From Planctomycetota bacterium (GTDB lineage: Bacteria; Planctomycetota; PUPC01), in NCBI GenBank assembly GCA_046483085.1, contig JAWODX010000614.1, forward strand, positions 1 through 30,793: a stretch of DNA of 30,793 nucleotides. Reading direction: 5' to 3'. The notes beneath the pieces were generated by a model, which was not told the origin of the DNA, did no database searches, and was given only the letters and a program-made list of their open reading frames with translations. This document shows, in pieces, positions 11,042 through 25,864 of the stretch (the stretch's first letter is position 1; every line of letters begins with the position of its first letter). Position numbers and translations under genes: made by a program.

Positions 11042-11051
11042 GGTGGGCCCA

Positions 11052-11060: not shown

Positions 11061-11119
11061 TGTGGTCCGGCGGGGCGCGCAAAGAAAATCGGTTCGGGCG
11101 GCGCGCGGTCGGGGCCGAG

Positions 11120-11141
11120 AATTGTGAAAAATTTCGCAATT
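11120..11141. promoter_or_regulatory. Palindromic operator, Rex-box/CRP-like
   Basis: AATTGTGAAAAATTTCGCAATT; core TTGTGAA-N4-TTCGCAA is one mismatch from the Rex consensus TTGTGAA-N4-TTCACAA. Confidence 0.65.
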
Positions 11142-11145
11142 CCCC

Positions 11146-11174
11146 TTGACGCACCCCGGCCCCGTCCGTATAGT
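11146..11174 (+). promoter_or_regulatory. sigma70 promoter of the hydrogenase operon
   Basis: TTGACG (11146-11151), 17-bp spacer, TATAGT (11169-11174). Confidence 0.8.
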
Positions 11175-11349
11175 ACGCCCAATCAACAAGCTGGATCGGC
11201 AGGAGTCGCGGGCGGGCGCGAGCGGAACGACCGATGCCGACCCGCTCCTGCCGGAGACAATCGGGTTCCGTACGACGCGGTAAGAGGGGCAGCGGAGCAA
11301 GTCGCGCCCCTCGGTTCGTTGTGCCTGTTCATCTATGGGAGGCGGGCAC

Positions 11350-12393
11350 GTGACCACGTACTGCCTGGACCCGCAGCAGCTGGCCGACGCTCTGGCCGAG
11401 AAAGAGGGGATCGTCACATTCGCGCCCGTCCCCACCGAGGGGATGAGCTGGCTGGGGATCGGCGTGGCGGAGCCGGACCCGTCGGCGCTCCGCGAACCGC
11501 GCAGCGCCCAGAGCCCCAAGGGCGCCGTCTTCCCCGCCTCGGAATCCGTCGGCCGCTACGGCCCGAAGGCCGGGACCGCCACCGACACGCTCCCCAAGTC
11601 CATCGTCCTCGTCGGCGTGCGCGCCTGCGAACTCCGCGCCATCCGCTACCTCGACCGCGTGCTGCTGGAGGGCGATTTCGAGGACCCGCCTTACCGCCGG
11701 CGCCGCGAGGCGACGACCCTCGTCGCCTGCGACTGCACCGGGCTGGCCGAGACCTGCGCCTGCACCCTCGTCGGAGGGCAGCCGTATCCCAACGAGGGCT
11801 ACGACGTCAACCTCACCCCGCTCGACGACCGGTTCCTCGTCGAGGTCGCCACCCCGAAGGGCGAGGCCTGGCTCGAGAGCGTCGGGCTCACCGATCTGGC
11901 CGAGGCCGGCGAAGACGAGCTGGCCCGGCGGGACGAGCAGCGGGCCGAAGTCGCCCGCCGCGTCGAGGAGCAGAACGCTGAGTTCGAGGTCCGCGCGTCG
12001 GACGACACGCCGGCGCCCCTGCCGGACGACGCCGCCGAGAGCTGGAACCGGTTCGCCGCCGACTGTGTCGAGTGCGGCGCCTGCACGCACATCTGCCCCA
12101 CCTGCCACTGCTTCTACCTCTACGACCAGGCGCTGGGGCCGGAGGAATTCGAGCGGCTGAAGACCTGGGACAGTTGCCTGTGGAGCACGTACCACCGGAT
12201 GGCGGGCGGCGCGGGCATGAAGCTCAGCCCGCGCCCGCGGCTGGCCAGCCGGCTGGCCAACCGCGTGCTGCACAAGTTCGTCTATTCGCCCCAGCAATAC
12301 GAGCTCCTGGGCTGCGTGGGCTGCGGCCGGTGTGTCGACGCCTGCCCCGGGGCCATTGACATTCGCGAGGTGGTAAGGGAACTGGCCGAATGA
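11350..12393 (+). CDS. AsrA/HydB (sulfhydrogenase beta)-like 4Fe-4S protein
   Basis: GTG start after GGAGG. 'GVRACELRAI', 'CVECGACTHICPTCHCF', 'WDSC', 'CVGCGRCVDACP'. Confidence 0.88.
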   Translation: MTTYCLDPQQLADALAEKEGIVTFAPVPTEGMSWLGIGVAEPDPSALREPRSAQSPKGAVFPASESVGRYGPKAGTATDTLPKSIVLVGVRACELRAIRYLDRVLLEGDFEDPPYRRRREATTLVACDCTGLAETCACTLVGGQPYPNEGYDVNLTPLDDRFLVEVATPKGEAWLESVGLTDLAEAGEDELARRDEQRAEVARRVEEQNAEFEVRASDDTPAPLPDDAAESWNRFAADCVECGACTHICPTCHCFYLYDQALGPEEFERLKTWDSCLWSTYHRMAGGAGMKLSPRPRLASRLANRVLHKFVYSPQQYELLGCVGCGRCVDACPGAIDIREVVRELAE

Positions 12394-13208
12394 CTGCGGA
12401 AGAGTCGTACCTGCCGACGCCGGCGGAGCTGGTCGAGGTGATCGACGAGACGCCGACGATCCGGACGCTGATCGTCGAGCCCGAGGAGCCGCTCGAATTC
12501 AAGGCCGGCCAGTTCGTCCAACTGACCGTCCCCGGCCGCGGCGAGGCGCCGTTCACCCCGTCCAGCTCCCCCAGCCAGCCCGACCGTATCGCCGTCACCG
12601 TCCTGCGCACCGGGAAGATCACCGACGAGCTGCACGAGGCGAGCGTCGGCGAGACGCTGGGCATCCGGGGGCCGTTTGGCAAGGGGTACCCGCTGGAGAA
12701 GCTGCCGGGGAAGGACGTGCTGATCGTGGGCGGCGGGGTCGGCCTGGCGCCGCTCCGCGCCCTCATCTTCGCCCTGCTCGAAGACCTGAGCGAGATCCCC
12801 CGCGTCAGCATCAAGTACGGCGCCCGCTGCATGGAGGAGCTGCTCTTCAACGACCAGTACGACGGGTGGGCGGAGCACCCGAAGGTCGACTTCACCTGCA
12901 CGATCGACCGGCCGCAGGAGGGCTGGACCGGGCGGACCGGGGTCGTCACCACCCTGCTCAAGGGGGTCGACGTCCACATCGGCAACTGCCTGTCGTTCGT
13001 GTGCGGGCCGAGCATCATGCTCAAGTTCACCACGATGGCCCTGGAAGAGGAGGGCTTTGCGCCGGAGCAGATCTACCTGTCGATGAACCGGCGGATGTCT
13101 TGCGGAAAGGGACTTTGCGGCCGCTGCAACATCGGGCCGTATTACCTGTGTAAAGACGGACCGGACATCAACTACGCGCTGATCAAGGGCTACCCCAACG
13201 TGTTCTAG
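12390..13208 (+). CDS. AsrB/HydG (sulfhydrogenase gamma, PyrK-like) FAD/NAD(P)-binding 2Fe-2S subunit
   Basis: 'FKAGQFVQL', 'GIRGPFGKGY', 'VGGGVGLAPL', 'CGPSIM', 'MSCGKGLCGRC...CKDGP'; ATGA overlap with the upstream gene. Confidence 0.92.
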   Translation: MTAEESYLPTPAELVEVIDETPTIRTLIVEPEEPLEFKAGQFVQLTVPGRGEAPFTPSSSPSQPDRIAVTVLRTGKITDELHEASVGETLGIRGPFGKGYPLEKLPGKDVLIVGGGVGLAPLRALIFALLEDLSEIPRVSIKYGARCMEELLFNDQYDGWAEHPKVDFTCTIDRPQEGWTGRTGVVTTLLKGVDVHIGNCLSFVCGPSIMLKFTTMALEEEGFAPEQIYLSMNRRMSCGKGLCGRCNIGPYYLCKDGPDINYALIKGYPNVF

Positions 13209-13280
13209 CCGCGTGAGCCGGGCCGGGCGCCGCGTCGGTCGCTCGCCCGGGTCCCCCTGGTCGACGCCGGGAAAAGCCCC

Positions 13281-14900
13281 GTGCCTGGAGCCGAAGAAAG
13301 CCGTGACGTCCGCAGTCGATGCGTCCTCTGCCCCGCCGGCTGCGAGCTCGGGCTCGCCCCGAGCGGGCCGGACCGGTGGCGGACCGCGTACCCCCTGACC
13401 GACGACGCCGGGCTCTGTGCCCGCGGCTCCGTCGTCGGCGAGCTGCTCGGCCATCGCCGCCGCATCCTCGACCCCGCCGTCCACGAGGACGGATCGCGCC
13501 GCCGCGTCGGCCCCGACGACGCCCTGCGAGCGGTCCTCGACGCCGCCGGCGAGAAGACCCTGACCGTGCTGCTCGACGGCAACCTCCCGTGCGAGCAACT
13601 GGCCGAGGCCGTCGCCCGGCTCGACGCCTGGCCCGCCGGGCGCCTCTGCCTGGTCGTCGAACCCGTCGACCGCGAGCTCCTGCTCGGCACCGAGGAGAGC
13701 GGCGCCGACTACCTGCGGAACGACGGGCTGGCCGACTGCGACGGGTTCCTCCTCGTCGGGGACGTGTTCGCCGCGAACCCGCTGTGTGCGCGGCCCGTGC
13801 TCGACCGGCACCGGGCCGAGCCGAGGACGCCGATCGCCGCGCTGGACCCGGCCGGCGGGGCGGTCGTGAAATTCGCCTCGCACCGGGTCGACGTCGCCCC
13901 GGGCGGCGAGCTGGCCGCGCTCCGGGCGCTGGCGGCGGCCGCCGGGCTGAATGTCGACGCGCCGGACGTCCCCTCGGCCGCCGCGGCCGGGGCGGCCCTC
14001 GCCGACTGCGAGCGGCTGGGCGTCCTGCTCGCCGCCGAGTGCGCGCGGACCGACAACTGGCGCGCCATCGGCCGGCTGGCCGGCGACCTGGCGAAGGCCC
14101 GCGGCGGCGGCGTCGCCGTCCAGACGAACGGCGCGAACGCGCTGGCCGCCGTGCGCGTCGAGGCGGCGGAAGGGACGATCCCGCTGGCCGACGCGCTGGC
14201 CGACGAGAGCGACGTCAAGGTCGCCGTGGGCTGCGACGTCGTCGGGATGCTGGGGCGGGACGACGTTGCCGTCGCCGCCGCGGCCGCCGCCCTGCCGAAC
14301 CGGACGACGCAGGCGGCGGGGATTGTGCTCCCGCTCGCACTCCCCGGCGAGTACGGCGGCACGTATCTGCTCGACGGGGCGCGGCCGGCGGAGGTCGGGC
14401 CGCTCATCGACCCGCCGGCGGGGATCGAGACCGCCGCCGCGCTCGTGGCGGCACTGGCCCGCGCCGCGGGAGCGGCCGAGCCGGCGCCCCGGACGCAGGA
14501 CATCGTGCCCGGCCGCGTGGCCGGCGGGGACGCGCCGGCCGAGACGCCCGCCGCCGAGCACGCCTCGCTCGTCCTCGTCCTGGCGCGCCGGGCGGCGGAC
14601 GGCGGGTGCGGCGCGCTGACGGGCCACGCGAGCTGGCGGACGTCGGTCGATCCGCTGCCCGAGCTGGCGATGGCGCCCGACGACGCCGAGCAGGCCGGCC
14701 TGTCGAACGCGGCGGAGGTGACCGTCGAGACCGACCGCGGGCAGCTCCGGGCGCGGGTGCGCCTGGCGCCCGAGGTGCGGCCCGGGGTGTGTGTGCTGCC
14801 CGAGGGGCTGCCGGCCGCCCGGGCGCTCGTCTCGTCGGAACTCGATCCGGACCACCATCGCGTCGTGGCGCCACCGCGACCTGTCACAGTGAGCGAATAG
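13281..14900 (+). CDS. Divergent molybdopterin-oxidoreductase (FdhF/NuoG-like) homologue lacking the Mo-ligand motif
   Basis: N-terminal 4Fe-4S motif 'CVLCPAGC...LCARG'; 'LADCDGFLLVG...NP'; 'LPLALPGEYGGTY'; C-terminal molybdopterin-dinucleotide-like domain 'MAPDDAEQAGLSNAAEVTVETDRGQLRARVRLAPEVRPGVCVLP'. Confidence 0.75.
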   Translation: MPGAEESRDVRSRCVLCPAGCELGLAPSGPDRWRTAYPLTDDAGLCARGSVVGELLGHRRRILDPAVHEDGSRRRVGPDDALRAVLDAAGEKTLTVLLDGNLPCEQLAEAVARLDAWPAGRLCLVVEPVDRELLLGTEESGADYLRNDGLADCDGFLLVGDVFAANPLCARPVLDRHRAEPRTPIAALDPAGGAVVKFASHRVDVAPGGELAALRALAAAAGLNVDAPDVPSAAAAGAALADCERLGVLLAAECARTDNWRAIGRLAGDLAKARGGGVAVQTNGANALAAVRVEAAEGTIPLADALADESDVKVAVGCDVVGMLGRDDVAVAAAAAALPNRTTQAAGIVLPLALPGEYGGTYLLDGARPAEVGPLIDPPAGIETAAALVAALARAAGAAEPAPRTQDIVPGRVAGGDAPAETPAAEHASLVLVLARRAADGGCGALTGHASWRTSVDPLPELAMAPDDAEQAGLSNAAEVTVETDRGQLRARVRLAPEVRPGVCVLPEGLPAARALVSSELDPDHHRVVAPPRPVTVSE

Positions 14901-14901
14901 G

Positions 14902-15447
14902 ATGCCGACCCAGGAGCAGGAGACGATCGAGAAACGCGTGTTCGTGGACATGGACCGCTGCATCGAGTGCGGGTCGTGTGCGGCGGCGTGTTACTACAGC
15001 CACGCGGACATGCCCGCGGTGCAGCAGGCGCGGGCCGGCTGGGCGCTGCTCCCGGTGATCTGCCGGCAGTGCAAGTCGGCCCCGTGCGTCGACGTCTGCC
15101 CGGCGGAGGCGATGGTCCGGGACGACCAGGGGGTCGTGCGCCGGCGGCTGTTCCGCTGCATCGGCTGCGGGTCGTGCGCCCGGGCGTGTCCGTTCGGGGT
15201 GATCACGACGACGCTGGGGGGGACGCCGGTGGCGTGGAAGAGCCCGGACCGGCTGACCGGGCACCAAGTGGCGAAGTGTGACCTGTGCGCGGACCGCCTG
15301 TCGGAGCATCCGGACGCGGTCCCCCGGTGTGTGGCGGCGTGCCCGGCGGGGGCGCTCGTGTTTGTCGACGCCCGCGCGGCGCCGGCGGAAGGGATCAAGG
15401 TGGTGGGCGGCCGGACCGCCGCCGAGGACTTCTACAAACGCAGGTGA
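14902..15447 (+). CDS. HycB/HyfA/CooF-like 4x[4Fe-4S] electron-transfer protein
   Basis: 'CIECGSCAAAC', 'CRQCKSAPCVDVCP', 'CIGCGSCARACP', 'KCDLC...PRCVAACP'. Confidence 0.9.
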   Translation: MPTQEQETIEKRVFVDMDRCIECGSCAAACYYSHADMPAVQQARAGWALLPVICRQCKSAPCVDVCPAEAMVRDDQGVVRRRLFRCIGCGSCARACPFGVITTTLGGTPVAWKSPDRLTGHQVAKCDLCADRLSEHPDAVPRCVAACPAGALVFVDARAAPAEGIKVVGGRTAAEDFYKRR

Positions 15448-15451
15448 GCCA

Positions 15452-16402
15452 ATGGACGTGCCCTGGGCGTTGATTGCGTTTCTGGCCGCCGGCGCCGGGA
15501 CCCTCGTGCTCGGGCTCCTGCTCCGGTGGCTGGACCGGAAAGTGACGGCGCGGGTCCAGTGGCGGAAGGGCCCGCCGATCTACCAGACGTTCGCCGACGT
15601 GATCAAGCTGCTGGGCAAGGAGAACCTCATGCCGGCGAACGCGCGGGGGACGGGCTTCCTGCTCGCCCCGGTGCTCGCCCTGGCGGCGACGGCGGTGGCG
15701 GCGACGCTCCTGTGGACCGCGCTGCTCAGCCCGGGCACCACGTTCCTCGGCGACCTGATCGTGGTGATCTACTTCCTGGCCGTGCCCGCCATCATGACCA
15801 TCGTGGGCGGCGGGGCGAGCGGGAACCCGCACGCCTCGGTCGGCGCCAGCCGCGAGATCAAGCTGCTGATGAGCTATGAGCTGCCGCTGTTCATCGTCAT
15901 CCTGGTGGCGGTGGCTCACAGCGGCTGGACGTTCCAGCTCGGCGGGCTGCTCGCCGCCCAGCAGGCGGGCGCGCCGGTCGTCTTCCGCCTGTCCGGCGTG
16001 CTGGCCCTGGTCGTGGCGATCGTGTGCATGCAGGCGAAGCTGGGGCAGGTCCCGTTCGACCTGGCCGAGGCGGAGTGCGAGATCATGTCCGGGGTGTACG
16101 TCGAGTACTCCGGCCCGTCGCTCGCGTTCTGGATGATGACGCGGGCGATGCTGCTCGCCGTGATGCCGCTGTTGCTGATCATCGTGTTCTGGGGCGGGCT
16201 GACCCCGACGGTCCTCGGTGTGCTGGCGTTCGTGGGGAAGTACGTCCTGCTGGTGGCGCTGGTCACGTTGATCCGGAACACGAATCCGCGGCTGCGGATC
16301 GACCAGACGGTGCGGTTCTTCTGGTTCGTGCTCACCCCGCTCGCCGTGGTCACCATCCTGCTGGCGCTGATCGGGCAGGGGAAGGAGCTGCCGTGGCTGT
16401 GA
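15452..16402 (+). CDS. NuoH/HycD/MbhM-like membrane subunit
   Basis: 'DRKVTARVQWRKGPP..Q.FADVIKLLGKE', 'GASREIKLLMSYE', 'PFDLAEAECEIMSGVYVEYSG', 'PRLRIDQ'. Start at ATG 15452. Confidence 0.92.
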   Translation: MDVPWALIAFLAAGAGTLVLGLLLRWLDRKVTARVQWRKGPPIYQTFADVIKLLGKENLMPANARGTGFLLAPVLALAATAVAATLLWTALLSPGTTFLGDLIVVIYFLAVPAIMTIVGGGASGNPHASVGASREIKLLMSYELPLFIVILVAVAHSGWTFQLGGLLAAQQAGAPVVFRLSGVLALVVAIVCMQAKLGQVPFDLAEAECEIMSGVYVEYSGPSLAFWMMTRAMLLAVMPLLLIIVFWGGLTPTVLGVLAFVGKYVLLVALVTLIRNTNPRLRIDQTVRFFWFVLTPLAVVTILLALIGQGKELPWL

Positions 16403-16854
16403 AGACCTGGTGCCGGGAGCTGTGGAAGCGGGCGTTCGCCAAGTCGCTCTGGGTGTATCACGTGAACACCGGTGCGTGCAACAACTGCGACATCGAGGTG
16501 CTCGAGCTGCTCACGCCGCGCTACGACGTCGAGCGGTTCGGGATGGTGCTCGTCGGCTCGCCCCGGCACGCCGACGTGCTCGCCGTCACCGGGTCCTGCA
16601 CCCGGCAGGCGATGCCCCGGCTGCAGGAGGTCTACATGCAGACGGCGAAGCCCTGCGCCGTGCTGGCCATCGGGTCGTGCGCCCTGCACCAGGGCATCTT
16701 CGCCGAGGGATACCACATGGGCGCGACGGTCGACGAGACGATCAAAGCGGTCGACCCGAATGCGATCATCATGTACGTGCCCGGCTGCCCGCCGAAGCCG
16801 GAGGCGATGATCTCGGCCGCCGCCCAGGCGATGGAACTGATCAAGACGTTGTAG
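16393..16854 (+). CDS. [NiFe]-hydrogenase small subunit (HycG/MbhJ/NuoB-like)
   Basis: 'TGACNNCDIEV', 'YDVERFG', 'SPRHADVLAVTG', 'GSCA', 'PGCPPKPEA'. GTG start at 16393 (SD AAGGAG) or 16399. Confidence 0.92.
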   Translation: MAVKTWCRELWKRAFAKSLWVYHVNTGACNNCDIEVLELLTPRYDVERFGMVLVGSPRHADVLAVTGSCTRQAMPRLQEVYMQTAKPCAVLAIGSCALHQGIFAEGYHMGATVDETIKAVDPNAIIMYVPGCPPKPEAMISAAAQAMELIKTL

Positions 16855-16878
16855 AGGGAGGACGGAGGACATCCGACG

Positions 16879-18627
16879 ATGACCATCACGACGACAGAGA
16901 CAGAGGTCCCCCTGCAGGGCTTTGTCGGGGAGGTGCTGGAGCGGCTCGGCGACGCCGTGGTCGAGGTCGAGACCTGTGACGAGCGGCGGGGGTTCGCCCG
17001 GATCGACCCGGCGCGGACCGCCGAGGTCGCCGAGACGATGCTCGCGATGGAGGGCGCCCGGCTGGCCACGGCCAGCGGCGTCGACGTGCGCGACGGGATC
17101 GACGTGCTCTACCACTGGGCGTTCGAGCCGCAGGGCGTCGTGGTCACCCTCAAGGTGCTCGCCGAGCGGCCGGACCTGGAGGTCGAATCGGCCGCCAACG
17201 CCGTCCCGGCCGCTAACTGGATCGAGCGCGAGATGCACGACCTGCTCGGCGCGAACTTCCGGAACCATCCCGACATGCGGCGGCTCATCCTCGACGACTC
17301 GTGGCCGGAGGGGGTGTACCCGCTGCGGAAGGACTTCGACCAGGTGGCCGACCGGCCGCCGCTCCCGCCCCGGCAGACGGAGCCCGACGCGGACCCGCCG
17401 CTCCCCCGCGACCCCGGCCCCGGCGTCAAGGGGCAGGTCAAGCACCGCGACCTGAAGGTCGTCAACATCGGCCCCTTCCACCCGCTCCAGGAAGAGGCCG
17501 AGTTCTTCCAGCTCTACGTGGACGGCGAGACGGTGGTCGACGTCGACATGCGGACCAGCTACAACCACCGCGGGATCGAGAAGATCGACGAGTCGAAGAC
17601 GTTCGACCAGGTCCCGTTCGTCGTCGAGCGGGTCTGCGGCATCTGTTCGGCCAGCCATCCGCTGGCCTACGTCCAGGCGGTCGAGGAGATCGCCGAGGTC
17701 GACGTGCCCGAGCGGGCGCTCTACCTGCGGACCATCGTGAACGAGCTGGAGCGGCTCCACTCGCACATGCTGTGGGTCGGCCTGGCCGGCCACTTCCTCG
17801 GGTACAACACCGTGTTCATGTGGGCGTGGAAGTACCGCGAGCCGGTGATGGACATCCTGGAGATCGCGACCGGCAGCCGGGTCAACTACGCCAACTGCAA
17901 GGTGGGCGGCGTCCGGCGCGACATCACCGACGAACAGCTCCGCCAGATCGACCAGGTCTGCACCGAACTCGTCGAGCCGCTCGAGATGCTGACCCACGCG
18001 GTGCTCGACGACCCGGTGCTCCACGCGCGCCTGAAAGGCGTGGGGATTCTCAGCCCGCAGGCCGCGAAGGAGTTCGGCGCGCTCGGGCCGACGGCCCGCG
18101 GCAGCGGCGTGCCCATCGACGTGCGCCGCGACGACCCGTACGCCGCGTACGACCGCGTCGACTGGGACGTCTGTACCCAGCCGAAGGGGGACGTGTTCGG
18201 CAAGGCGGTCGTCCGCCTGCTCGAATGCCTGGAGGCGGTGAAGATCATCAAGCAGTGCGTGCAGGACCTGCCCGGCGGCGAGATCGACGCGAAGGTCGAG
18301 GCCATCCCGCCCGGCGAGGGCGTGGGGCACGTCGAGGCGCCGCGCGGCGAGACCTTCCACTACGTGCGCAGCGACGGCTCGAACCGCCCGGTCCGCCACA
18401 AGGTCCGGGCGCCCAGCTTCAACAACGTCCCCACGTTCAAGGCCTCGTGCATTGGGCAGCGGATCCCCGACGTGGCCATCACCCTGGCGAGCATCGACCC
18501 GTGCTACTCGTGCACGGAGCGGATGTGCGCCGCGGTGGACGCCGACACGGGGGTCCGGCTGTACACGTTCCAGGACCTGGTTCGCCTGTCGCAGCAGAAG
18601 ACAAGAGAGCTGCGCGAGAAAGGGTAG
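16879..18627 (+). CDS. Group 4 [NiFe]-hydrogenase large subunit fused to a NuoC/MbhK-like domain (HycE-type architecture)
   Basis: NuoC part 'NWIEREMHDLLG...HPDMRRLIL...YPLRKDF'; 'NHRGIEK'; L1 'ERVCGICSASH' (17626-17658); 'VEAPRGETFHY'; L2 'DPCYSCTER' (18496-18522); 34-aa C-terminal extension. Confidence 0.95.
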   Translation: MTITTTETEVPLQGFVGEVLERLGDAVVEVETCDERRGFARIDPARTAEVAETMLAMEGARLATASGVDVRDGIDVLYHWAFEPQGVVVTLKVLAERPDLEVESAANAVPAANWIEREMHDLLGANFRNHPDMRRLILDDSWPEGVYPLRKDFDQVADRPPLPPRQTEPDADPPLPRDPGPGVKGQVKHRDLKVVNIGPFHPLQEEAEFFQLYVDGETVVDVDMRTSYNHRGIEKIDESKTFDQVPFVVERVCGICSASHPLAYVQAVEEIAEVDVPERALYLRTIVNELERLHSHMLWVGLAGHFLGYNTVFMWAWKYREPVMDILEIATGSRVNYANCKVGGVRRDITDEQLRQIDQVCTELVEPLEMLTHAVLDDPVLHARLKGVGILSPQAAKEFGALGPTARGSGVPIDVRRDDPYAAYDRVDWDVCTQPKGDVFGKAVVRLLECLEAVKIIKQCVQDLPGGEIDAKVEAIPPGEGVGHVEAPRGETFHYVRSDGSNRPVRHKVRAPSFNNVPTFKASCIGQRIPDVAITLASIDPCYSCTERMCAAVDADTGVRLYTFQDLVRLSQQKTRELREKG

Positions 18628-18634
18628 AGGTGGT

Positions 18635-20569
18635 ATGAACGGGATCGTCGAGGTGGTCACCCATCCGCTGGTCTGGCCGATCGCGGCGGCCGCGCTGGCC
18701 GGGCTGCTGGCGACCGTCCTCTCCCGGTGGTCGGCCTTCGTCTGCAAGGTCCTGGCCCTCGCGGCCAGCATCTGCGTGCTGGTGGGCGGGATCACGCTGG
18801 CGGGAGCCGGGGCACTCTCCGAGCGCTGGGTCTGGGTGGAGGGCCTGGCCGAGAACGTCTCGCTCGTCGCCCATCTGGCCGTCTCGCCGCTGGGGCTGCT
18901 GGTGATGATCGCGTCGGGCGGGTTCGGGCTCCTGATCACGCTGTACAGTTTCCGGGACATGGCGGGGGCCGATTTCGAGGGCCGGTTCTACGCGTACCTG
19001 ACGTGGACGCTGGCGGGCGCGTGCGTGGTCGCCCTGGCGGGCAACCTGCTCGTCCTGCTCGTCGGCTGGGAAGTGGTCACCCTCATGCTCTTCCTGATGG
19101 TCAACCAGGGCCGGGAGGGCGCCGAGGCGGGGGCGATGAAGGCGTACGGCGTGCTCGGCTTCGCCGACGCCTGCCTGCTGCTCGCGGTGGCGCTCCTGGT
19201 CTCGCTGAAGGGGGGCACGGCGAACCTCGTCCTGCGGTCCGAGCCGATGACCGTCTCGGCGATGGGGGCGACCGGGTACGTGATCTACGCGCTCCTGCTC
19301 GTCGCCGCGCTGGCCAAGGCGGGCGCCGTTCCGCTCCACACGTGGATCCCGGACATCGCCGAGAAGGCGCCGACGCCGGTGATGGCGCTCGTGCCGGCGG
19401 CCCTCGACAAGCTGCTGGGCATCTACCTGCTGGCGCTCGTCGTGCTGCGGATGTTCCGGCCGGACTGGACGATGCAGGTGGTGCTGATGGCGATCGGGGC
19501 GGTGACGATCCTCAGCGCCGTGCTGATGGCGATGATCCAGCACAACCTCAAGCGGCTGCTCTCGTTTCACGCGGTCAGCCAGGTCGGGTACATGGTGTTG
19601 GGGATCGGGACCGGGACGGCCGTGGGCGCCGTCGGCGGCCTGTTCCACATGCTCAACCACGCGATCTACAAGAGCAACCTGTTCCTGATGGGCGGGACGG
19701 TCGGCGACGCGGCGGGCAGCGACGAGATCGAGGAGATGGGCGGCCTGGCCCGGGCCCTGCCCGTCACGTTCGTGTGCGGTGCGATCAGCGCGGCGGCGAT
19801 CTCCGGCGTGCCGCCGCTGAACGGCTTCGCCAGCAAGTGGCTGGTCTACCAGGGTGCGCTGAAGGTCTCGGAGCAGCACGCGTCGCTCGCTCTGGCCGTG
19901 CTCGTGGTGGCGGTGTTCGGCAGCGCGTTGACCCTGGCGAGTTTCGTGAAGGTGATCTACTCGGCGTTCCTTTCCCCGCCGCCGCGCGAGAAGGAGCCGA
20001 TGCTGAAGACTGTTCGGGAGAGTGTGTGGCGGGCCGGACCGATGGTGGTGCTGGCCGCAGCCTGCGTGGTGTTCGGGCTGCGGCCGGGCCTCGTCACGAA
20101 CCGGATCCTCCCGTCGGCTGTCCCGGCCGCGACGGCGGCCATCTCGACGACGGAAGGGGCGCTGCGGACCGGCGACGTGGGCTACTGGAGCCCGACGCAG
20201 GCGACGGGCCTGATCCTGCTCGGGCTGGCGCTCGGCCTGCTCCTGCTCGGCCTGGTCAGCATGGGCAAGCGGGTGCGGGTGGTCCGGCCGTTCCTCGCCG
20301 GCGAGGTGCCCGCGCCCGACGACGACCGGTTCCGGTTCCCCGGCACCGGGTTCTATCTGACCGTTGCCCGGCTGCCGATCCTCGGGCCCTGGCTCGCCCA
20401 GGCCGAGGGCGGCGCCGTCGACCTGTACCACTGGTCGGGGCGGCACGGCAACACGTTCGTCCAGTTCCTCCGCCGACTTCACACCGGCCTCGTCAGCTTG
20501 TACGTCGCCTGGTGCCTGACGGGCCTGACCGTGATCCTGATTTATCTGCTGATGACCGCGAGGGGATGA
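18635..20569 (+). CDS. Antiporter-like membrane subunit (HyfB/NuoL/MrpA-type)
   Basis: 'LLVGWEVVT', 'KAGAVPLHTWIP', 'LKRLLSFHAVSQVGY', 'HMLNHAIYKS', 'GVPPLNGFASKW'; ATG 18635 after GAGGTG. Confidence 0.9.
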   Translation: MNGIVEVVTHPLVWPIAAAALAGLLATVLSRWSAFVCKVLALAASICVLVGGITLAGAGALSERWVWVEGLAENVSLVAHLAVSPLGLLVMIASGGFGLLITLYSFRDMAGADFEGRFYAYLTWTLAGACVVALAGNLLVLLVGWEVVTLMLFLMVNQGREGAEAGAMKAYGVLGFADACLLLAVALLVSLKGGTANLVLRSEPMTVSAMGATGYVIYALLLVAALAKAGAVPLHTWIPDIAEKAPTPVMALVPAALDKLLGIYLLALVVLRMFRPDWTMQVVLMAIGAVTILSAVLMAMIQHNLKRLLSFHAVSQVGYMVLGIGTGTAVGAVGGLFHMLNHAIYKSNLFLMGGTVGDAAGSDEIEEMGGLARALPVTFVCGAISAAAISGVPPLNGFASKWLVYQGALKVSEQHASLALAVLVVAVFGSALTLASFVKVIYSAFLSPPPREKEPMLKTVRESVWRAGPMVVLAAACVVFGLRPGLVTNRILPSAVPAATAAISTTEGALRTGDVGYWSPTQATGLILLGLALGLLLLGLVSMGKRVRVVRPFLAGEVPAPDDDRFRFPGTGFYLTVARLPILGPWLAQAEGGAVDLYHWSGRHGNTFVQFLRRLHTGLVSLYVAWCLTGLTVILIYLLMTARG

Positions 20570-20573
20570 TCCC

Positions 20574-21182
20574 ATGGGGATTGAGTGGCTGATTGTGGCG
20601 CTGATCGCGTTCATGCTCATGGCGGGCCTGATCGCCGTGGAGACACGCGACCTGCTCAGCTCGGTGATCGCCGTGGGCGCCGCCGGCTTCGCGCTCAGCA
20701 TCATCGACCTGCTGGTCGGGGCGCCCGACCTCGCGATCACCCAGGTCGTGGTCGAGGTCATCGCCCTGGTCCTGCTCATCCGCATGGTGGTGACGCGCGA
20801 GGACACGTCGTCGATCCGTTCGCGCGACGTACTCCGCACCGGGGCCATGCTCCTGGCCGCGGGGCTGATCCTCGTCGGCGCATACTTCGCCGTCCGGCCG
20901 GGCGACGAGGGCACGTTGCCGCCGTTCGGCGACCCGGTCCTGGCTCGGGATGCCGTGCGCGGGGACGACCAGGGCGTGAGCGAGGGATACCTGAGAAAGA
21001 CGGAGGAGCAGACGGGGGCGGCGAACGCGGTGACCGCGGTGCTGCTCGACTACCGGGCCTACGACACGCTGGGCGAGGCGACGGTGATCTTCGTCTCGAT
21101 CCTCGGTGTGTACGCCGTGCTCCGCCGGGTGGGCCGCAAGCGCGGTGAGGCGGGCGAAGAGAGCTGCGAGGGAGAGGCATGA
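20574..21182 (+). CDS. DUF4040 plus MnhB-N fusion (MbhD+MbhE-like; corresponds to the MrpA C-terminal part)
   Basis: 'GAPDLAITQVVVE' and 'NAVTAVLLDYRAYDTLGEATVIF'. Confidence 0.88.
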   Translation: MGIEWLIVALIAFMLMAGLIAVETRDLLSSVIAVGAAGFALSIIDLLVGAPDLAITQVVVEVIALVLLIRMVVTREDTSSIRSRDVLRTGAMLLAAGLILVGAYFAVRPGDEGTLPPFGDPVLARDAVRGDDQGVSEGYLRKTEEQTGAANAVTAVLLDYRAYDTLGEATVIFVSILGVYAVLRRVGRKRGEAGEESCEGEA

Positions 21183-21631
21183 TGAGCAGCAAGAGCGGCA
21201 TGACCTTGATCGTGAAGAACACGGCGCGGCTGGTGGCCGGGTTCATTGCCGTGTTCGGGGTGTACCTGGCGGCGACGGGGCACCTGTCGCCCGGCGGCGG
21301 GTTCCCCGGCGGGGTGATCCTGGCGGCGGCGGCCGTGTTGGTCGTGCTGGCATTCGGGAAGGACTTCGCCGGGCGCCTGCTGCGCGAGCCGCAGTGCCAC
21401 GTGTGGGACGCGGCGGGGGCGGGCGCGTTCCTGCTCGTCGCCCTGTGCGGCTATTTCGCCGGTGGGTTCTTCGCCAACTTCCTGCCTGCCGGCCAGGTCC
21501 ACACGCTGCAGTCGGCGGGGAGCATCCCGCTCTCCAACCTGGCGATCCTGGTCAAGGTGGGCGCGGGGCTCGCCGGCGCCTTCCTCGCCTTGTCCGCGTT
21601 TCGACTCGCTCTACCGAAGGGAGACGAGTGA
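21179..21631 (+). CDS. mnhB: Na+/H+ antiporter subunit B (MbhF-like)
   Basis: 'GHLSPGGGFPGGVILA'; ATGA overlap. Confidence 0.88.
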   Translation: MMSSKSGMTLIVKNTARLVAGFIAVFGVYLAATGHLSPGGGFPGGVILAAAAVLVVLAFGKDFAGRLLREPQCHVWDAAGAGAFLLVALCGYFAGGFFANFLPAGQVHTLQSAGSIPLSNLAILVKVGAGLAGAFLALSAFRLALPKGDE

Positions 21632-21632
21632 G

Positions 21633-21989
21633 ATGGGTGTGTCCGTCTACGTGCTGAGCATCGCCGTCCTGCTGGTGGGCATCTACGGCGTGGTGGCGAA
21701 AAAGAACGTGGTCAAGATCATCGTCGGGGTGCTGCTGCTCGACTACGCGGTCAACCTGTTCCTGGTGCTCGTCGGGTATCGGAGCGGCGGCACGGCGCCG
21801 ATCCTGGGCGAGGGCGAGACGGGCGCCGAGTTGGCGGCCCGGGCCGTCGATCCGCTCCCCCAGGCCATGGTTCTGACGAGCATCGTGATCGGGCTGGGCC
21901 TGACGGCCCTCATGGTGGCGATCGCCATCCGCCTGTACGAGAAATACGGGACGTTCGACGCCGATGAGATGCGGAAGCTGAGGGGCTAG
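21633..21989 (+). CDS. mnhC: Na+/H+ antiporter subunit C (MbhG/NuoK-like)
   Basis: 'KNVVKIIVG...AVNLFL', 'DPLPQAMVLTSIVIG'. Confidence 0.9.
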   Translation: MGVSVYVLSIAVLLVGIYGVVAKKNVVKIIVGVLLLDYAVNLFLVLVGYRSGGTAPILGEGETGAELAARAVDPLPQAMVLTSIVIGLGLTALMVAIAIRLYEKYGTFDADEMRKLRG

Positions 21990-21992
21990 ACT

Positions 21993-23495
21993 ATGGAATC
22001 GCTGGTGCCGCTGTTTGTGATCGTGCCCCTGGGCGTGGCGTTCCTCGTGGTCATCCTGGCCCACGTGCGGCCGCTCCGCCGGGTGGTCGGCCCCCTGTCC
22101 TTCGCGGCCATCCTGGCCAACGCGGCGCTCGCGATCTCCGTCCTGGGCGTCGAGATGGCCCCCCTGTACGTGGGCAAATGGAACCCCGATTCGGTGTTGG
22201 GCATCGCCATGGTCTGCGACGGGCTGGCGAAGCTCATGCTGGTGACGATCAACTTCGTGGCCGCGGCGGCGCTGATCTACGCGGGCGCCTACATGCGGCG
22301 GTTCACCAAGGTCTGGCTATTCTACGCCCTGTTCCTGCTGATGACCGGTGCGATGAACGCGGTGGTGCTGGCGGGCGACCTGTTCAACATGTTCGTGTTC
22401 CTGGAGATCGCGGCCATCTCGTCGTACGCCCTGGTCGCGTTCGGCTGCGAGTCGGAAGAGCTGGAGGCGGCGTTCAAGTACCTGATCATGGGGACGGTCG
22501 GCTCGGCCTGCATCCTGCTTGGAATCGCGGTTCTCTATTCGCTGACCGGGCAGTTGAATATGGCGCAGGTCGGCGGGCTCTTGGCGCGGGGCGCGGGCCC
22601 GGCCGCCTTGTTTGCGGCGGCGGCGCTGTTGGCCGGGCTGGCGCTGAAGGCCGCGATGGTCCCCTTCCACGCCTGGCTGCCCGACGCCCATCCCTCCGCG
22701 CCGGCGCCCATCTCGGCGATGCTGTCCGGCGTGTTGATCAAGGCGATCGGCGTATATGCGCTCGCGCGGATCGTGTTCAATGTGCTGGGGCCGACGGCGG
22801 AGTACAGCATGATCCTCGTCGTGCTTGGGGCCGCGTCGATGGTGATCGGCGTCTTCCTGGCGGTCGGCCAGTGGGACCTGAAGCGCCTGCTCGCCTATCA
22901 CAGCATCTCGCAGATGGGCTACGTCGTCCTCGCACTGGGTGTGGCGGCGGGGCTGGTGGCCGAGGGCGGGAGCCGCAGCGTCGCCGCGCTCTGCCTGCTG
23001 GGCGGGCTGTTCCACATGTTCAATCACGCGGCGTTCAAGAGCTTGCTCTTCCTGTCGTCCGGGTCCATCGAGCAGCAGACGGGGACGCGGATGCTGAAGC
23101 AGATGGGCGGGCTGAAGACGCGGATGCCGGTCACCAGCTTCTGCTGCCGGATCGGCGCATTGAGCATCGCGGGCGTCCCGCCGCTGAACGGCTTTTTCTC
23201 GAAGCTCATCATCATCGTCGCTCTGGTGCTGGCCGGGCGGCCGCTGCTGGCCGGGCTGGCCGTGCTGGTCGCGCTGATGACGCTCGTCAGCTTCACCAAG
23301 GTGCAGCGGTACGTGCTGGAGGGGACGCCGAAGCCGGCGGCGGCCCTGGCCCGCGAGGCCCCGGTGATGATGTGCGTGGCACTCGTCTTTCTCGCCCTGG
23401 TCTGCATCGGCGGCGGACTCGCCCTGTTCCCGCTCCGCGAGCACCTGTTCGGCCCGGCCGGCGAGGCGCTCCTGCGAGGGATCGGCGGACCGTGA
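21993..23495 (+). CDS. mnhD: Na+/H+ antiporter subunit D (MbhH-like)
   Basis: 'GDLFNMFVFLEI', 'EAAFKYL', 'LKAAMVPFHAWLPDAHPSAPAPISAMLSG', 'DLKRLLAYHSISQMGY', 'GVPPLNGFFSK'. Confidence 0.92.
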   Translation: MESLVPLFVIVPLGVAFLVVILAHVRPLRRVVGPLSFAAILANAALAISVLGVEMAPLYVGKWNPDSVLGIAMVCDGLAKLMLVTINFVAAAALIYAGAYMRRFTKVWLFYALFLLMTGAMNAVVLAGDLFNMFVFLEIAAISSYALVAFGCESEELEAAFKYLIMGTVGSACILLGIAVLYSLTGQLNMAQVGGLLARGAGPAALFAAAALLAGLALKAAMVPFHAWLPDAHPSAPAPISAMLSGVLIKAIGVYALARIVFNVLGPTAEYSMILVVLGAASMVIGVFLAVGQWDLKRLLAYHSISQMGYVVLALGVAAGLVAEGGSRSVAALCLLGGLFHMFNHAAFKSLLFLSSGSIEQQTGTRMLKQMGGLKTRMPVTSFCCRIGALSIAGVPPLNGFFSKLIIIVALVLAGRPLLAGLAVLVALMTLVSFTKVQRYVLEGTPKPAAALAREAPVMMCVALVFLALVCIGGGLALFPLREHLFGPAGEALLRGIGGP

Positions 23496-23508
23496 TCGGA
23501 GTCCTGGT

Positions 23509-23994
23509 ATGAAGTGGCTGATGTGCCTGTTGGCCGTGTTCGCCCTGTGGGTCCTCCTGTTCTGGTCGGTGGACGCGTGGGTGCTGGGCAGCGGCGCCTT
23601 CTTCGCCCTGCTCGTCGCCACCTTCCTCGGCGAGATCTACCCCGACCGCATGGACCGGGTGCTCGACCCCCGGCGCGTCTTCTTCTTCCTCGTCTACCTC
23701 CCCTACTTCTTCTACTGGTGCCTCAAGGCGAACCTCGACGTGGCCCTGCGCGTCATCCACCCCGATGTCCCCATCCGCCCGGGCATCGTCAAGGTCAAGA
23801 CCTCGCTCCGGACCGACATGGCCAAGACGTTCCTCGCCAACAGCATCACTCTCACGCCCGGCACACTCACCGTGGACATCGACGGGGACGACGTGTACGT
23901 GCACTGGATCAACATCGACACCGACGATGTGGAGCAGCGGACGAGCGAGATCTGCGGCCGGTTCGAGCCGCTGCTGCGGAGGATTTTCGAATGA
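23509..23994 (+). CDS. mnhE: Na+/H+ antiporter subunit E (MbhA-like)
   Basis: 'ANLDVALRV..P..PIRPGIV', 'LANSITLTPGTLTVD', 'YVHWI'. Confidence 0.92.
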   Translation: MKWLMCLLAVFALWVLLFWSVDAWVLGSGAFFALLVATFLGEIYPDRMDRVLDPRRVFFFLVYLPYFFYWCLKANLDVALRVIHPDVPIRPGIVKVKTSLRTDMAKTFLANSITLTPGTLTVDIDGDDVYVHWINIDTDDVEQRTSEICGRFEPLLRRIFE

Positions 23995-24257
23995 CCCTGT
24001 TCGTACAGATCGCATTCGCCGTGCTCCTGCTCGGCTCGTTCCTCTGCCTCTACCGCATCGCCCGCGGGCCCACCCCGCCCGACCGGACCGTCGCCATCGA
24101 CATCCTCGGCACCCTCGTCGTCGGCTTCTGTTGCCTCATGGCGCTGGGCACCGACCTCGAATACTACATGAACATCGCCATCGCCTGGGCTCTCATCAGC
24201 TTCACCGGCACGCTCGCTCTGGCCAAGTACCTGGAAGGCAGATCTTACGATGATTGA
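23991..24257 (+). CDS. mnhF: Na+/H+ antiporter subunit F (MbhB-like)
   Basis: 'RIARGPTPPDRTVAID', 'SFTGTLALAKYLE'; ATGA overlap. Confidence 0.9.
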   Translation: MTLFVQIAFAVLLLGSFLCLYRIARGPTPPDRTVAIDILGTLVVGFCCLMALGTDLEYYMNIAIAWALISFTGTLALAKYLEGRSYDD

Positions 24258-24645
24258 GACGATCGCCTGCTGGATTATCGGCGTCGGCCTCGCGTTCGAC
24301 CTGTTCGGCTGCATCGGCCTGGTCCGGCTCCCCGACGTGTACAACCGCGCCCAGGCCGCCACGAAATGCGTCACGCTCGGCACCTGCATGATCCTGGTCG
24401 GCGTGGCCCTCGCCGCCGTCGGGTCGGGCAACTGGCCGATGGCCGTCAAGGCGCTCATCTGCGCCTCGTTCATCCTCCTCACCAGCCCCGTCGGCGCCCA
24501 CGCCATCTGCCGCGGCGCCTATCTCTCCGGCGTCCCCCTGTGGGAGGGGAGCGTCGAGGACGCGTTCGAGCCGAGAGCCCGCACCATCCGAACCGAAGAA
24601 ACCCAGGAAGGACCCGCCCCCGATGCGGAAACCGAAACTGCGTGA
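24250..24645 (+). CDS. mnhG: Na+/H+ antiporter subunit G (MbhC-like)
   Basis: 'GLVRLPDVYNRAQAATKCVTLG', 'TSPVGAHAICRG'. Confidence 0.9.
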   Translation: MIETIACWIIGVGLAFDLFGCIGLVRLPDVYNRAQAATKCVTLGTCMILVGVALAAVGSGNWPMAVKALICASFILLTSPVGAHAICRGAYLSGVPLWEGSVEDAFEPRARTIRTEETQEGPAPDAETETA

Positions 24646-25240
24646 GCTCAAAGAGGCCGTCCGGTCCCTCCTCTCCCCGGCCTACACCACCCGGTTCCCC
24701 GCCGAACCCCACGTCCCGCCCGAGGGCTTCCGCGGCAAACCCGAGTTCCAGGAGGACGACTGCATCGGCTGCGCCGCCTGCGCCGAGCTCTGCCCCTCCG
24801 TTGCCATCAGCTACGTCGACGACGCCGGGGCCGATCCGCCGACCCGCCGGTTCGAGCTCCGGCTCGACAAGTGCATCTTCTGCGGCCAGTGCGAGCTCAA
24901 CTGCACCACCGAAAAGGGCATCAAGCTCACCGGCCAGTACGACATGACCACCCTCGACCGCTCCGAGTGCCGCGAGCGGATCGAACACGAGCTCGTCCTC
25001 TGCGAGGTCTGCGGCGCCATCGTCGGCACGCGCAAACACCTCCAGTGGGTCGCCGAAAAGCTCGGGGCGAAGGCGTACGCCAACCCCACCCTGATCGTCA
25101 CCGCCGACGGGACCATGCAGCTCGCCACGCCCGACGCCGGCCGGCCCGGCGAACCCGCACTCGCACGAAGCGACATGATGCGCGTCATGTGCCCCGCCTG
25201 CCGACGCACCACCATCGTCCGCGAGCTGTGGGGCGAGTAA
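24623..25240 (+). CDS. HycF/NuoI/MbhN-like 2x[4Fe-4S] subunit with an extra Cys-rich C-terminal domain
   Basis: 'YTTRFP', 'FRGKP', 'CIGCAACAELCP', 'CIFCGQCELNC', plus 'CEVCG...CPAC'. Confidence 0.92.
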   Translation: MRKPKLRELKEAVRSLLSPAYTTRFPAEPHVPPEGFRGKPEFQEDDCIGCAACAELCPSVAISYVDDAGADPPTRRFELRLDKCIFCGQCELNCTTEKGIKLTGQYDMTTLDRSECRERIEHELVLCEVCGAIVGTRKHLQWVAEKLGAKAYANPTLIVTADGTMQLATPDAGRPGEPALARSDMMRVMCPACRRTTIVRELWGE

Positions 25241-25257
25241 GGAGCTCGAACAAAACG

Positions 25258-25309
25258 GTGGGGCGGACATTCCTGTCTGCCGCGCAGCAGGCAAGAATGC
25301 CTGCTCCAC
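25258..25309. repeat. REP doublet copy 2 (opposite orientation), inside the operon
   Basis: GTGG-GGCGGACA-TTCC-TGTCTGCC-GCGC-AGCAGGCA-AGAA-TGCCTGCT-CCAC. Confidence 0.85.
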
Positions 25310-25336
25310 CAGAGTTCTGTTAGACGGCCTAAGCCC

Positions 25337-25864
25337 GTGACCTCCCCCGAACCCTCCTCCCCCGACCGGTCCGAGCCCGAGCGCCTGGCCGAATGGCTGG
25401 CCGAGGTGCTCCGGCCCTCGTCGGTGATCATCGGAATCGGGGACGAGCTTCGGGGCGACGACGGAGCGGGGGTCGCCGTCGCCCGCCGGCTGGCCGAGGC
25501 CGTCCCCTGGGCGGTCGTGGTCGGCGAAAACGCGCCCGAGAACTTCACCATGAAGATCGCCGCCCGCCAGCCGACCTCCGTCCTGCTGATCGACGCCCTC
25601 CACTTCGGCGGCCGCCCCGGCGGCGTCCGCGCCCTCGACCCGGCCCAGCTCGACGGCCGCGGCATCGGCACGCACGGACCCGGGCCCGACACCTTCCTCC
25701 GCGCCCTCCGCTCGCTCCACCCCTGCCGGCAGGTCGTGCTCGGCATCCAGCCGCTCGACACGAGCTTCGGCGAGGGCCTGACCGAGCCCGTCGCCGACGC
25801 TGTCGACGCCGTCGTCCGCGCATTCGAGCTCTGCGCCGAACGTCGTCGGCCCGGAGAGCGCTGA
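25337..25864 (+). CDS. hycI: Hydrogenase maturation endopeptidase (HycI family)
   Basis: 'IGIGDELRGDDGAG', 'GENAPENF', 'VLLIDA', 'GTHG', 'LGIQP...FGEGLTEPV'. Confidence 0.88.
   Translation: MTSPEPSSPDRSEPERLAEWLAEVLRPSSVIIGIGDELRGDDGAGVAVARRLAEAVPWAVVVGENAPENFTMKIAARQPTSVLLIDALHFGGRPGGVRALDPAQLDGRGIGTHGPGPDTFLRALRSLHPCRQVVLGIQPLDTSFGEGLTEPVADAVDAVVRAFELCAERRRPGER

Follow-up and report, generated by a model that had tools for sequence, protein, structure and literature searches.

Group 4 [NiFe]-hydrogenases encoded together with antiporter-like subunits and a pair of AsrA/AsrB- or sulfhydrogenase-like proteins were described in print in 2019, 2021 and 2026; a 17-gene operon of this kind from a Planctomycetota bacterium (contig JAWODX010000614.1 of assembly GCA_046483085.1; the whole stretch of 30,793 nt is referred to as the window) is the subject of the present work. 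Matheus Carnevali et al. (2019; PMC6349859) drew attention to an 'enigmatic' group 4 [NiFe] hydrogenase cluster in Saganbacteria RX5A: as in the window, a hydrogenase and Mrp-like subunits are accompanied by an unclassifiable molybdopterin oxidoreductase, cooF, asrA and asrB, but the host belongs to another phylum and function was merely likened to that of Mbh. Glass et al. (2021; 10.1101/536078) described Hun, a 16-subunit supercomplex (hunA-P) with ferredoxin as proposed donor and with HunG (RXG63129 in Atribacteria) assigned to group 4g, in Atribacteria, Firmicutes, Omnitrophica, Elusimicrobia, Bacteroidetes and cultured Kosmotoga. Takano et al. (2026; PMC13582414) reported group 4b clusters in which an Fdh lacking Cys or selenocysteine (Sec) accompanies homologues of the beta and gamma subunits of SHI, the group 3b sulfhydrogenase of P. 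furiosus, and proposed a link to NADPH.

The window operon is a Phycisphaerae member of this already described Hun/SHI-beta-gamma-linked group 4 type. By its published description, Hun shares with the window the AsrA- and AsrB-like subunits, a polyferredoxin, NuoH, the small subunit, NuoC, a NuoD-type and a NuoL-like subunit, Mrp subunits and a NuoI-like subunit; some metagenome-assembled genomes (MAGs) have a 4Fe-4S molybdopterin protein inserted between HunB and HunC, the position that it takes here too. The window differs from the described Hun in that NuoC and the large subunit are fused, in that HycI comes last, and in its Phycisphaerae host, while the L2 motif is quoted as CYCC for Hun and reads CYSC in the window clade. 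In the Takano clusters, too, antiporter subunits go together with an Fdh without molybdenum (Mo) ligand and with homologues of SHI beta and SHI gamma; the focus of that work, however, was on large subunits that contain Sec, found in nine bacterial phyla (Planctomycetota are absent from its main text), whereas the window large subunit is all-Cys (without Sec) at its metal-binding motifs. The subgroup in print disagrees for this architecture (4g in Glass et al. 2021, 4b in Takano et al. 2026). The novelty implied by a preliminary description of this DNA has therefore to be given up, since the architecture had been printed three times, as that description itself suspected might be the case. New here are the conserved motifs of the gamma-like subunit, a genome profile free of Mo enzymes, pyruvate formate-lyase (PFL) and [FeFe]-hydrogenase, a Rex box, and variants without the Mrp genes.

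From the evidence below we lean towards the view that this Hun-type, Mrp-linked group 4 hydrogenase is a reversible NAD(P)H:H+ oxidoreductase, controlled by Rex and coupled to ion movement, through which H2 is vented where sediment H2 is low. Its hydrophilic arm would carry the NAD(P)H diaphorase half (beta plus gamma) of a group 3b sulfhydrogenase, a HycB-like ferredoxin and an Fdh-like relic.

Results

Organization of the operon

The 17-gene block spans 11335-25864 on the + strand of the window (G+C 65-77%). Its genes, and the two candidate control sites that precede them, are as follows (FeS, iron-sulfur).

11122-11139, no strand: candidate Rex-type operator TTGTGAA-N4-TTCGCAA, 7 bp upstream of the -35 hexamer
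11146-11174, + strand: sigma-70-like promoter TTGACG-17-TATAGT (10/12 positions match)
11335-12393, + strand: sulfhydrogenase beta/AsrA-like FeS subunit (HunA-like), 352 aa; Pfam Fer4_22 2.4e-28
12390-13208, + strand: sulfhydrogenase gamma/AsrB-like FAD, NAD(P)H, [2Fe-2S] subunit (HunB-like), 272 aa; Pfam NAD_binding_1, FAD_binding_6, DHODB_Fe-S_bind
13281-14900, + strand: Fdh-like MopB-fold protein without Mo ligand, one [4Fe-4S] site kept, 539 aa; Pfam Molydop_binding only
14902-15447, + strand: HycB/HydN/CooF-like polyferredoxin (HunC-like), 181 aa; Pfam Fer4_7, Fer4_9, Fer4_11; NCBIfam HydN 4.1e-20
15452-16402, + strand: NuoH/HycD-like membrane subunit; Pfam NADHdh 4.4e-66
16399-16854, + strand: [NiFe]-hydrogenase small subunit (NuoB/HycG-like), 151 aa; Pfam Oxidored_q6 3.6e-24
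16879-18627, + strand: NuoC-NuoD-type fusion, [NiFe] large subunit, 582 aa; Pfam Complex1_30kDa, Complex1_49kDa, NiFeSe_Hases
18635-20569, + strand: NuoL/HyfB/MrpA-like antiporter subunit; Pfam Proton_antipo_M 3.6e-51
20574-21182, + strand: MbhD+MbhE fusion; Pfam MbhD 3.1e-12, MbhE 4.7e-12
21179-21631, + strand: MnhB-domain subunit; Pfam MnhB 6.3e-23
21633-21989, + strand: NuoK/MnhC-like subunit; Pfam Oxidored_q2 1.4e-25
21993-23495, + strand: MrpD/NuoN-like antiporter subunit; Pfam Proton_antipo_M 4.2e-64
23509-23994, + strand: MnhE; Pfam MNHE 6.6e-40
23991-24257, + strand: MrpF; Pfam MrpF_PhaF 8.2e-16
24250-24645, + strand: MnhG; Pfam PhaG_MnhG_YufB 1.9e-23
24623-25240, + strand: HycF/NuoI-like two-cluster ferredoxin subunit (HunP-like); Pfam Fer4_7
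25337-25864, + strand: HycI-type large-subunit maturation protease; Pfam HycI; NCBIfam hycI 2.5e-23

All 17 genes are co-directional, each has a Pfam or NCBIfam match, and they are closely packed: neighbours overlap by 4 bp at 12390, 16399, 21179 and 23991, by 8 bp at 24250 and by 23 bp at 24623, and the largest intergenic gaps are 72 and 96 bp, with none longer than 96 bp. The preliminary description had proposed 17 co-directional genes with such overlaps; every overlap it quoted and its parts list proved right. Three starts were corrected from the sequence (ATG at 15452 for NuoH, at 18635 for the NuoL-like subunit and at 21633 for the NuoK-like subunit), and the G+C content at third codon positions (GC3; 0.82-0.96 for scored frames) backs the chosen reading frames. 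Between 10.9 and 26.2 kb the sole sigma-70-like match is that at 11146-11174, the next lying at 26234, before ndk. The operon is confirmed as real, intact and widely conserved.

The hydrogenase core and the ion-pumping arm

The large subunit retains both Ni-Fe CxxC motifs (L1, RVCGICSASH; L2, DPCYSCTER), and its homologues, among the matches listed, carry L1 RVCGICS..H and L2 DPCYSCTER. After the TER of L2 comes a 34-residue C-terminal tail of the kind removed by HycI, and the HycI-type protease at the end of the operon scores 98.4 bits against NCBIfam hydrog_prot (cut-off 47.45). The small subunit reaches 117.6 bits against the NCBIfam NuoB subfamily (cut-off 116), the HycF/NuoI-like subunit matches the formate hydrogenlyase FeS subunit (5e-30) and NuoI (5e-19), and the NuoL-like subunit matches NuoL (2e-70) and hydrogenase 4 subunit B (4e-62). 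With L1 and L2, NuoB-, NuoH- and HycF-like subunits and the protease all in place, the core is, as far as motifs and family matches indicate, the complete group 4 membrane-bound [NiFe]-hydrogenase that had been claimed for this DNA. The claimed pair of antiporter-like subunits (Proton_antipo_M twice) and the Mnh-type accessory subunits were found as well: equivalents of MrpA/D, B, C, E, F and G are all in the operon and make up a complete Mrp module.

Two solved enzymes provide the nearest comparisons for this core. The best PDB matches of the large subunit are HycE (7z0s_E; 2.1e-93, 317 bits) and MbhL (6cfw_L; 1.1e-86, 295 bits), bit scores too close to decide the group 4 subgroup. Formate hydrogenlyase 1 (FHL-1) of E. 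coli (7z0s/7z0t) shares HycE with its N-terminal NuoC-like domain and the HycB-, HycF-, HycG-, HycD- and HycI-like parts; it differs in having an active Sec/Mo FdhF and in lacking both an Mrp module and a flavoprotein. The membrane-bound hydrogenase (MBH) of P. furiosus (6cfw) and the Thermococcus Fdh-Mfh-Mnh complex are Mrp-linked group 4 enzymes with equivalents of MbhD/E and MnhB, E, F and G. MBH, however, takes ferredoxin directly and is without SHI-like, Fdh-like, HycB-like and extra NuoL-like subunits.

The input module

The first two proteins form a flavin/FeS module of the NAD(P)H type, as their earlier designation as AsrA- and AsrB-like had implied, and their best solved relatives are the SHI subunits: SHI beta for the beta-like protein (9nez_B, 1.5e-27) and SHI gamma for the gamma-like protein (9nez_C, 1.8e-42, with an alignment spanning 238 residues). 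In NCBIfam the beta-like protein matches AsrA (2.2e-37) and ShyB (1.8e-35), each under cut-off, and the gamma-like protein matches AsrB (2.1e-53). The AsrA/AsrB equivalog cut-offs are missed (129 vs 323 bits for AsrA, 181 vs 289 bits for AsrB), and Pfam and NCBIfam reveal no gene for AsrC, the sirohaem subunit, in the operon. Because the Asr cut-offs are missed so widely, AsrC is absent and the best solved relatives are SHI beta and gamma, the SHI pair fits these proteins better than true AsrA/AsrB. The equivalog level of HydB/HydG or ShyB/ShyC is missed too (beta, 111-122 bits vs cut-offs of 690-750; gamma, 140-155 vs 600-650); judged by these scores, the two proteins are homologues, not orthologues, of the sulfhydrogenase subunits. 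They share with P. furiosus SHI (group 3b) the [2Fe-2S] motif, the glycine-rich loop and the TAR/GAR arginine. SHI beta and gamma, however, sit on a soluble group 3b alpha-delta dimer, whereas the window pair, of modest identity to them, is encoded with a membrane-bound group 4 enzyme. The flavin module is of the FNR/PyrK type and unrelated to NuoEF of complex I.

The cofactor motifs of this module are strongly conserved. Among 20 orthologues the gamma-like subunit has a mean column identity of 74%, and its PFTPSS flavin segment, GGGVGLAPLR loop, YGAR, CGP and four [2Fe-2S] cysteines are invariant or nearly so; YGAR aligns with the TAR of the NADPH-using SHI gamma. In the beta-like subunit 15 cysteines are invariant (19 orthologues). 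Such a pattern fits a working nucleotide-binding flavoprotein rather than a passive wire. The HycB-like ferredoxin expected in the leading part of the operon is there, as a polyferredoxin with Fer4 domains and a HydN match, and its 16 invariant cysteines are enough for four [4Fe-4S] clusters.

The Fdh-like subunit

Described earlier as a Mo-less FdhF homologue, the third protein is rightly so called. In a profile alignment the Sec-His dyad of the F420-dependent FdhA 9t1s_L lies opposite Glu127-Pro128, and DPG stands in place of the DPR motif; in the wider family, the Mo-ligand position is [EP]P.[DE], never Cys or Sec. Pfam finds no PF00384 match in the protein. The four cysteines of the N-terminal [4Fe-4S] motif (C14, C17, C21, C46) are by contrast invariant. 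An AlphaFold model (pLDDT 92.7, pTM 0.93) matches in Foldseek NapA, FdhH and, equally well, the cofactor-less NuoG/Nqo3 (TM 0.67-0.76); FdhH of E. coli FHL-1 gives TM 0.73-0.74 and NuoG chains 0.67-0.75. With NuoG/Nqo3 the protein shares a cofactor-less MopB fold kept as an FeS-bearing scaffold, but it is without the N-terminal [2Fe-2S]/HydA-like domain of NuoG, and its degeneration looks independent. That the subunit is a Mo-less relic, catalytically dead and NuoG-like, is well supported because no synthesis of the molybdenum cofactor (Moco) was detected in the 84.8% complete genome. Its identity to the window across loci (32-54%) is among the lowest of the subunits. Many residues other than cysteine are invariant in the family (e.g. 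R61, G160, N286, E357 and G360), and the conserved, remodelled pocket may bind something else.

In one distant relative (L022) Pfam still detects Molybdop_Fe4S4 and Molybdopterin in the Fdh-like protein, and an AIRS/AIRS_C protein (SelD/HypE-like; L022:461-1546) is encoded directly upstream of the beta-like gene.

Conservation and distribution

The window was compared with 22 related loci (L001-L022): four metagenome contigs, 15 species-representative Planctomycetota genomes and three distant Fdh-like members. A synteny search for asrAB, the fdhF-like gene and hycB beside a group 4 hydrogenase had been proposed, and the layout recurs in all 22 loci, as far as contigs reach, with differing flanks. 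Gene order is complete in the four metagenome contigs (large-subunit identity 62-84%) and is found also, within the reach of their contigs, in the 15 Planctomycetota genomes. Because the same order is seen in 22 loci of other organisms and between different flanks, chance is ruled out. Across loci, identity to the window is 72-85% for the small subunit, 62-85% for the large subunit and 63-84% for the gamma-like subunit, and the near homologues with a name come from Phycisphaerae/Planctomycetota MAGs.

Within the phylum the distribution is patchy: the Fdh-like gene is carried by 20 of 401 genomes and in 18 of the 287 genera sampled. A scan of genome contigs with one narrow peptide pattern returned only Planctomycetota; spread beyond this set rests on a representative search plus three context look-ups. 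In that search, which covered 1.84 billion representatives, the Fdh-like profile returned 148 clusters at 50% identity with E < 1e-30, and the three distant members sampled (L020-L022) all lie in the same operon layout.

Two Planctomycetales MAGs hold Mrp-less variants (L010:7864-17878 and L012:3-8876). Both are without MbhD/E, MnhB, C, E, F and G and the second antiporter, and both keep beta, gamma, the Fdh-like protein, HycB, NuoH, NuoB, NuoC/D, one NuoL-like subunit, HycF and HycI. Since these loci lack the Mrp genes and keep the rest, the Mrp module is separable from the soluble input module.

A candidate Rex operator

The box at 11122-11139 is an exact match to TTGTGAANNNNTTCRCAA, for which 0 matches are expected by chance. 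Its sequence, TTGTGAAAAATTTCGCAA, is one mismatch away from the Rex consensus TTGTGAA-N4-TTCACAA, to which no other site in the 4.27 Mb assembly comes so close. Rex-like boxes matching at least 12 of 14 positions also occur upstream of the first gene in six related loci (L005, L006, L010, L013, L014 and L019), in each as the sole such site of the locus. A canonical Rex of 203 aa is encoded on contig C442 of the genome.

A second Rex-like protein, of 374 aa, is encoded on contig C436 (L025, 299-1423); about 165 extra N-terminal residues precede its Rex DNA-binding and Rossmann domains.

The host genome

The assembly (4.27 Mb in 651 contigs, 84.8% complete) is a Phycisphaerae MAG, and DNA of the window is present in metagenome runs from freshwater sediment and microbial mats. 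The genome holds two POR_N genes of the pyruvate:ferredoxin oxidoreductase (PFOR) type, Rnf/Nqr-type subunits and HypD. Provisionally, given its 84.8% completeness, it gave no match for molybdopterin oxidoreductases (PF00384) or MoaC, for [FeFe]-hydrogenase, for haem-copper oxidase (COX1) or for PFL. Taken together, these presences and absences provisionally suggest an anaerobe that lives by fermentation and does without molybdenum enzymes.

The genome also carries a cluster of a HoxEF fusion, HoxU, HoxY and HoxH (L023, contig C612, 2380-7037), a soluble NAD-linked [NiFe]-hydrogenase of the group 3d type; a search of 9 kb around this Hox operon gave no Rex-like box.

Neighbouring genes

Upstream of the operon the window encodes, all on the minus strand, a large alpha-2-macroglobulin-family protein (MG2, A2M_BRD and A2M domains; 3-4055), a 522-aa HEAT-repeat protein (4441-6009), a 383-aa open reading frame (ORF) with a GC3 of 0.90 and no Pfam match (7289-8440) and, divergent from the operon, a PilS-like histidine kinase with six transmembrane segments (9590-11182). 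Histidine kinases flank the operon elsewhere too: a similar kinase in L004 and a GAF histidine kinase in L001. A second, stand-alone pair of mnhE (29507-29917) and mnhG (30181-30468) lies 3.6 kb downstream of the operon, with an 88-aa ORF without Pfam match between them (29922-30188); within the window no A-D partners for this pair (29507-30468) were found.

Discussion

We propose that electrons pass between NAD(P)H and H+/H2 by way of FAD, the [2Fe-2S] cluster, the clusters of the beta-like subunit, the HycB-like and HycF-like subunits and the small subunit to the Ni-Fe site, with the Fdh-like subunit as scaffold or side branch, and that this redox reaction would be reversibly coupled to H+/Na+ movement through the NuoH/NuoL/Mrp arm. 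Rex leaves DNA once NADH/NAD+ rises. A rise in NADH would then lift Rex repression, and reducing power would be vented as H2. As a predicted site at the promoter, the box of this NADH sensor lends indirect support to a role in the disposal of nicotinamide-bound reducing power. Takano et al. (2026) independently tie such clusters to NADPH through the SHI-beta/gamma homologues.

The preliminary description was right to be concerned that passing electrons from NADH to H2 is uphill, and the way out it offered, very low H2, fits an organism of sediments. By a Nernst estimate (our own calculation, with H+/H2 at -414 mV, NAD(P)+/NAD(P)H at -320 mV and 29.6 mV per decade of H2), the potential of the H2 couple comes to about -266 mV for 1 Pa of H2 and about -296 mV for 10 Pa. 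With NADPH at -350 to -380 mV, H2 evolution is estimated to be downhill below roughly 10^3 Pa H2, while about one translocated ion (~75 mV per electron pair) would be affordable only below roughly 2-20 Pa. Such pressures are usual where H2 consumers are active, as in sediments, and because the low H2 found there makes evolution downhill, the thermodynamic puzzle, though real, can be solved in situ. Under more H2, evolution would have to be paid for from the ion gradient, or the enzyme would work in reverse as an H2:NAD(P)+ oxidoreductase.

Less secure is the route by which electrons enter. The strictly linear wire first suggested for this DNA, from AsrA through the Fdh-like protein to HycB, is unproven: published AlphaFold models are branched, with the Fdh-like subunit as one terminus (Takano et al. 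2026). An order from the beta-like through the Fdh-like to the HycB-like subunit is one possibility. To place the docking of the beta-like subunit, a three-chain complex was predicted from our own alignments (Fdh-like 8-539, HycB-like 8-172, beta-like 52-352); its median score of 0.06, against a mark of 0.32, speaks neither for nor against a docking site.

Several observations weigh against the reversible, Rex-controlled NAD(P)H:H+ oxidoreductase that we favour. Rex control is inferred, binding being predicted from sequence only, and a strong Rex-like box is lacking in 12 of the 18 compared loci that hold the first gene. NADH and NADPH cannot be told apart as substrates from sequence. A soluble NAD-linked Hox is already encoded in the genome, so that a second plain NADH valve looks redundant; the coexistence of the two would imply that the membrane enzyme does something Hox cannot, be it NADPH specificity, energy coupling or the use of a second donor. 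The runs found to contain this stretch are DNA runs only, with no RNA runs among them, and in the literature searched we found no biochemical study of a Hun-type enzyme and no expression or structural datum for any member. Finally, two of the published interpretations differ from ours: ferredoxin is the donor proposed for Hun by Glass et al. (2021), and from AlphaFold models Takano et al. (2026; PMC13582414) proposed a three-way branched FeS network in which electrons would be bifurcated or confurcated between H2, NADP(H) and an unknown substrate.

The latter models, whose three termini are the large subunit, SHI-gamma and the Fdh-like protein, are also the ground for regarding the enzyme as a confurcating or bifurcating membrane hydrogenase, an alternative that we consider unlikely yet deserving of attention. 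The FeS network would branch at a HycB-like hub fed by NAD(P)H and by a further donor of low potential, either reduced ferredoxin or an unknown substrate of the Fdh-like protein, and oxidation of the downhill donor would cover the cost of the uphill one and of ion pumping. This would solve the thermodynamic problem and account for the coexisting soluble Hox; PFOR yields reduced ferredoxin, no [FeFe] confurcating hydrogenase was found in the genome, and the Fdh-like family keeps its many invariant non-Cys residues. On the other hand, no known bifurcating flavin site is present (the FAD of the gamma-like subunit corresponds to that of the non-bifurcating NfnA/PyrK-type subunit), the Fdh-like protein is without a Mo ligand, and Moco synthesis was not found in the genome. 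A variant that dispenses with a classical bifurcating flavin, in which an ion-pumping energy converter joins NAD(P)H and a second low-potential input through a branched FeS hub, seems to us rather improbable; reduced ferredoxin might serve as that input, or else an unknown substrate bound where the Fdh-like site is remodelled to Glu-Pro.

Were the enzyme instead, as proposed for Hun, an Mbh-like proton reductase driven by ferredoxin, with the AsrAB-like and HycB-like subunits collecting its electrons and NAD(P)H no substrate at all, there would be no thermodynamic problem; the resemblance of core and Mrp module to the ferredoxin-dependent MBH and the presence of PFOR speak for this view. We nevertheless judge this improbable, for the conserved nucleotide and FAD motifs of the gamma-like subunit are hard to explain in a mere wire, its closest solved relative is the NADPH-binding SHI gamma, and a Rex box suggests that NADH is sensed. 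In vitro the beta-gamma pair of sulfhydrogenase acts as an S0 reductase, and this, with the AsrA and AsrB matches of the first two proteins, invites the idea of a sulfur- or sulfite-linked enzyme for which polysulfide, S0 or sulfite would be the acceptor and H2 or NAD(P)H the donor. It is rejected as very improbable on account of the missed AsrA and AsrB cut-offs and of the operon's lack of AsrC, an absence remarked for Hun by Glass et al. (2021) as well. Least probable of all is that the enzyme is an ordinary formate hydrogenlyase like Fdh-Mfh-Mnh of Thermococcus or FHL of E. coli. The succession of Fdh-like protein, HycB-like protein, hydrogenase and Mrp module does resemble group 4b formate-respiring clusters, and HycE is the best solved relative of the large subunit; but oxidation of formate would have to take place at a subunit that has Glu-Pro for Sec/Cys-His ([EP]P.[DE] family-wide) and no PF00384, in a genome that, at 84.8% completeness, gave neither MoaC nor PFL, and the idea was rejected.

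Enzymes of this type occur widely in anoxic sediments and in the deep biosphere, and their electron donor is disputed in print: ferredoxin, NADPH or a bifurcating mix. To this the window adds a Planctomycetota lineage that carries the type, a regulatory clue that links it to Rex and NADH, and natural variants without the Mrp module. If NAD(P)H does feed, or draw on, an ion-pumping hydrogenase, then the enzyme would be a complex-I-like machine assembled from different parts, and the modelling of H2 thresholds and of the energy yields of fermenters would change.

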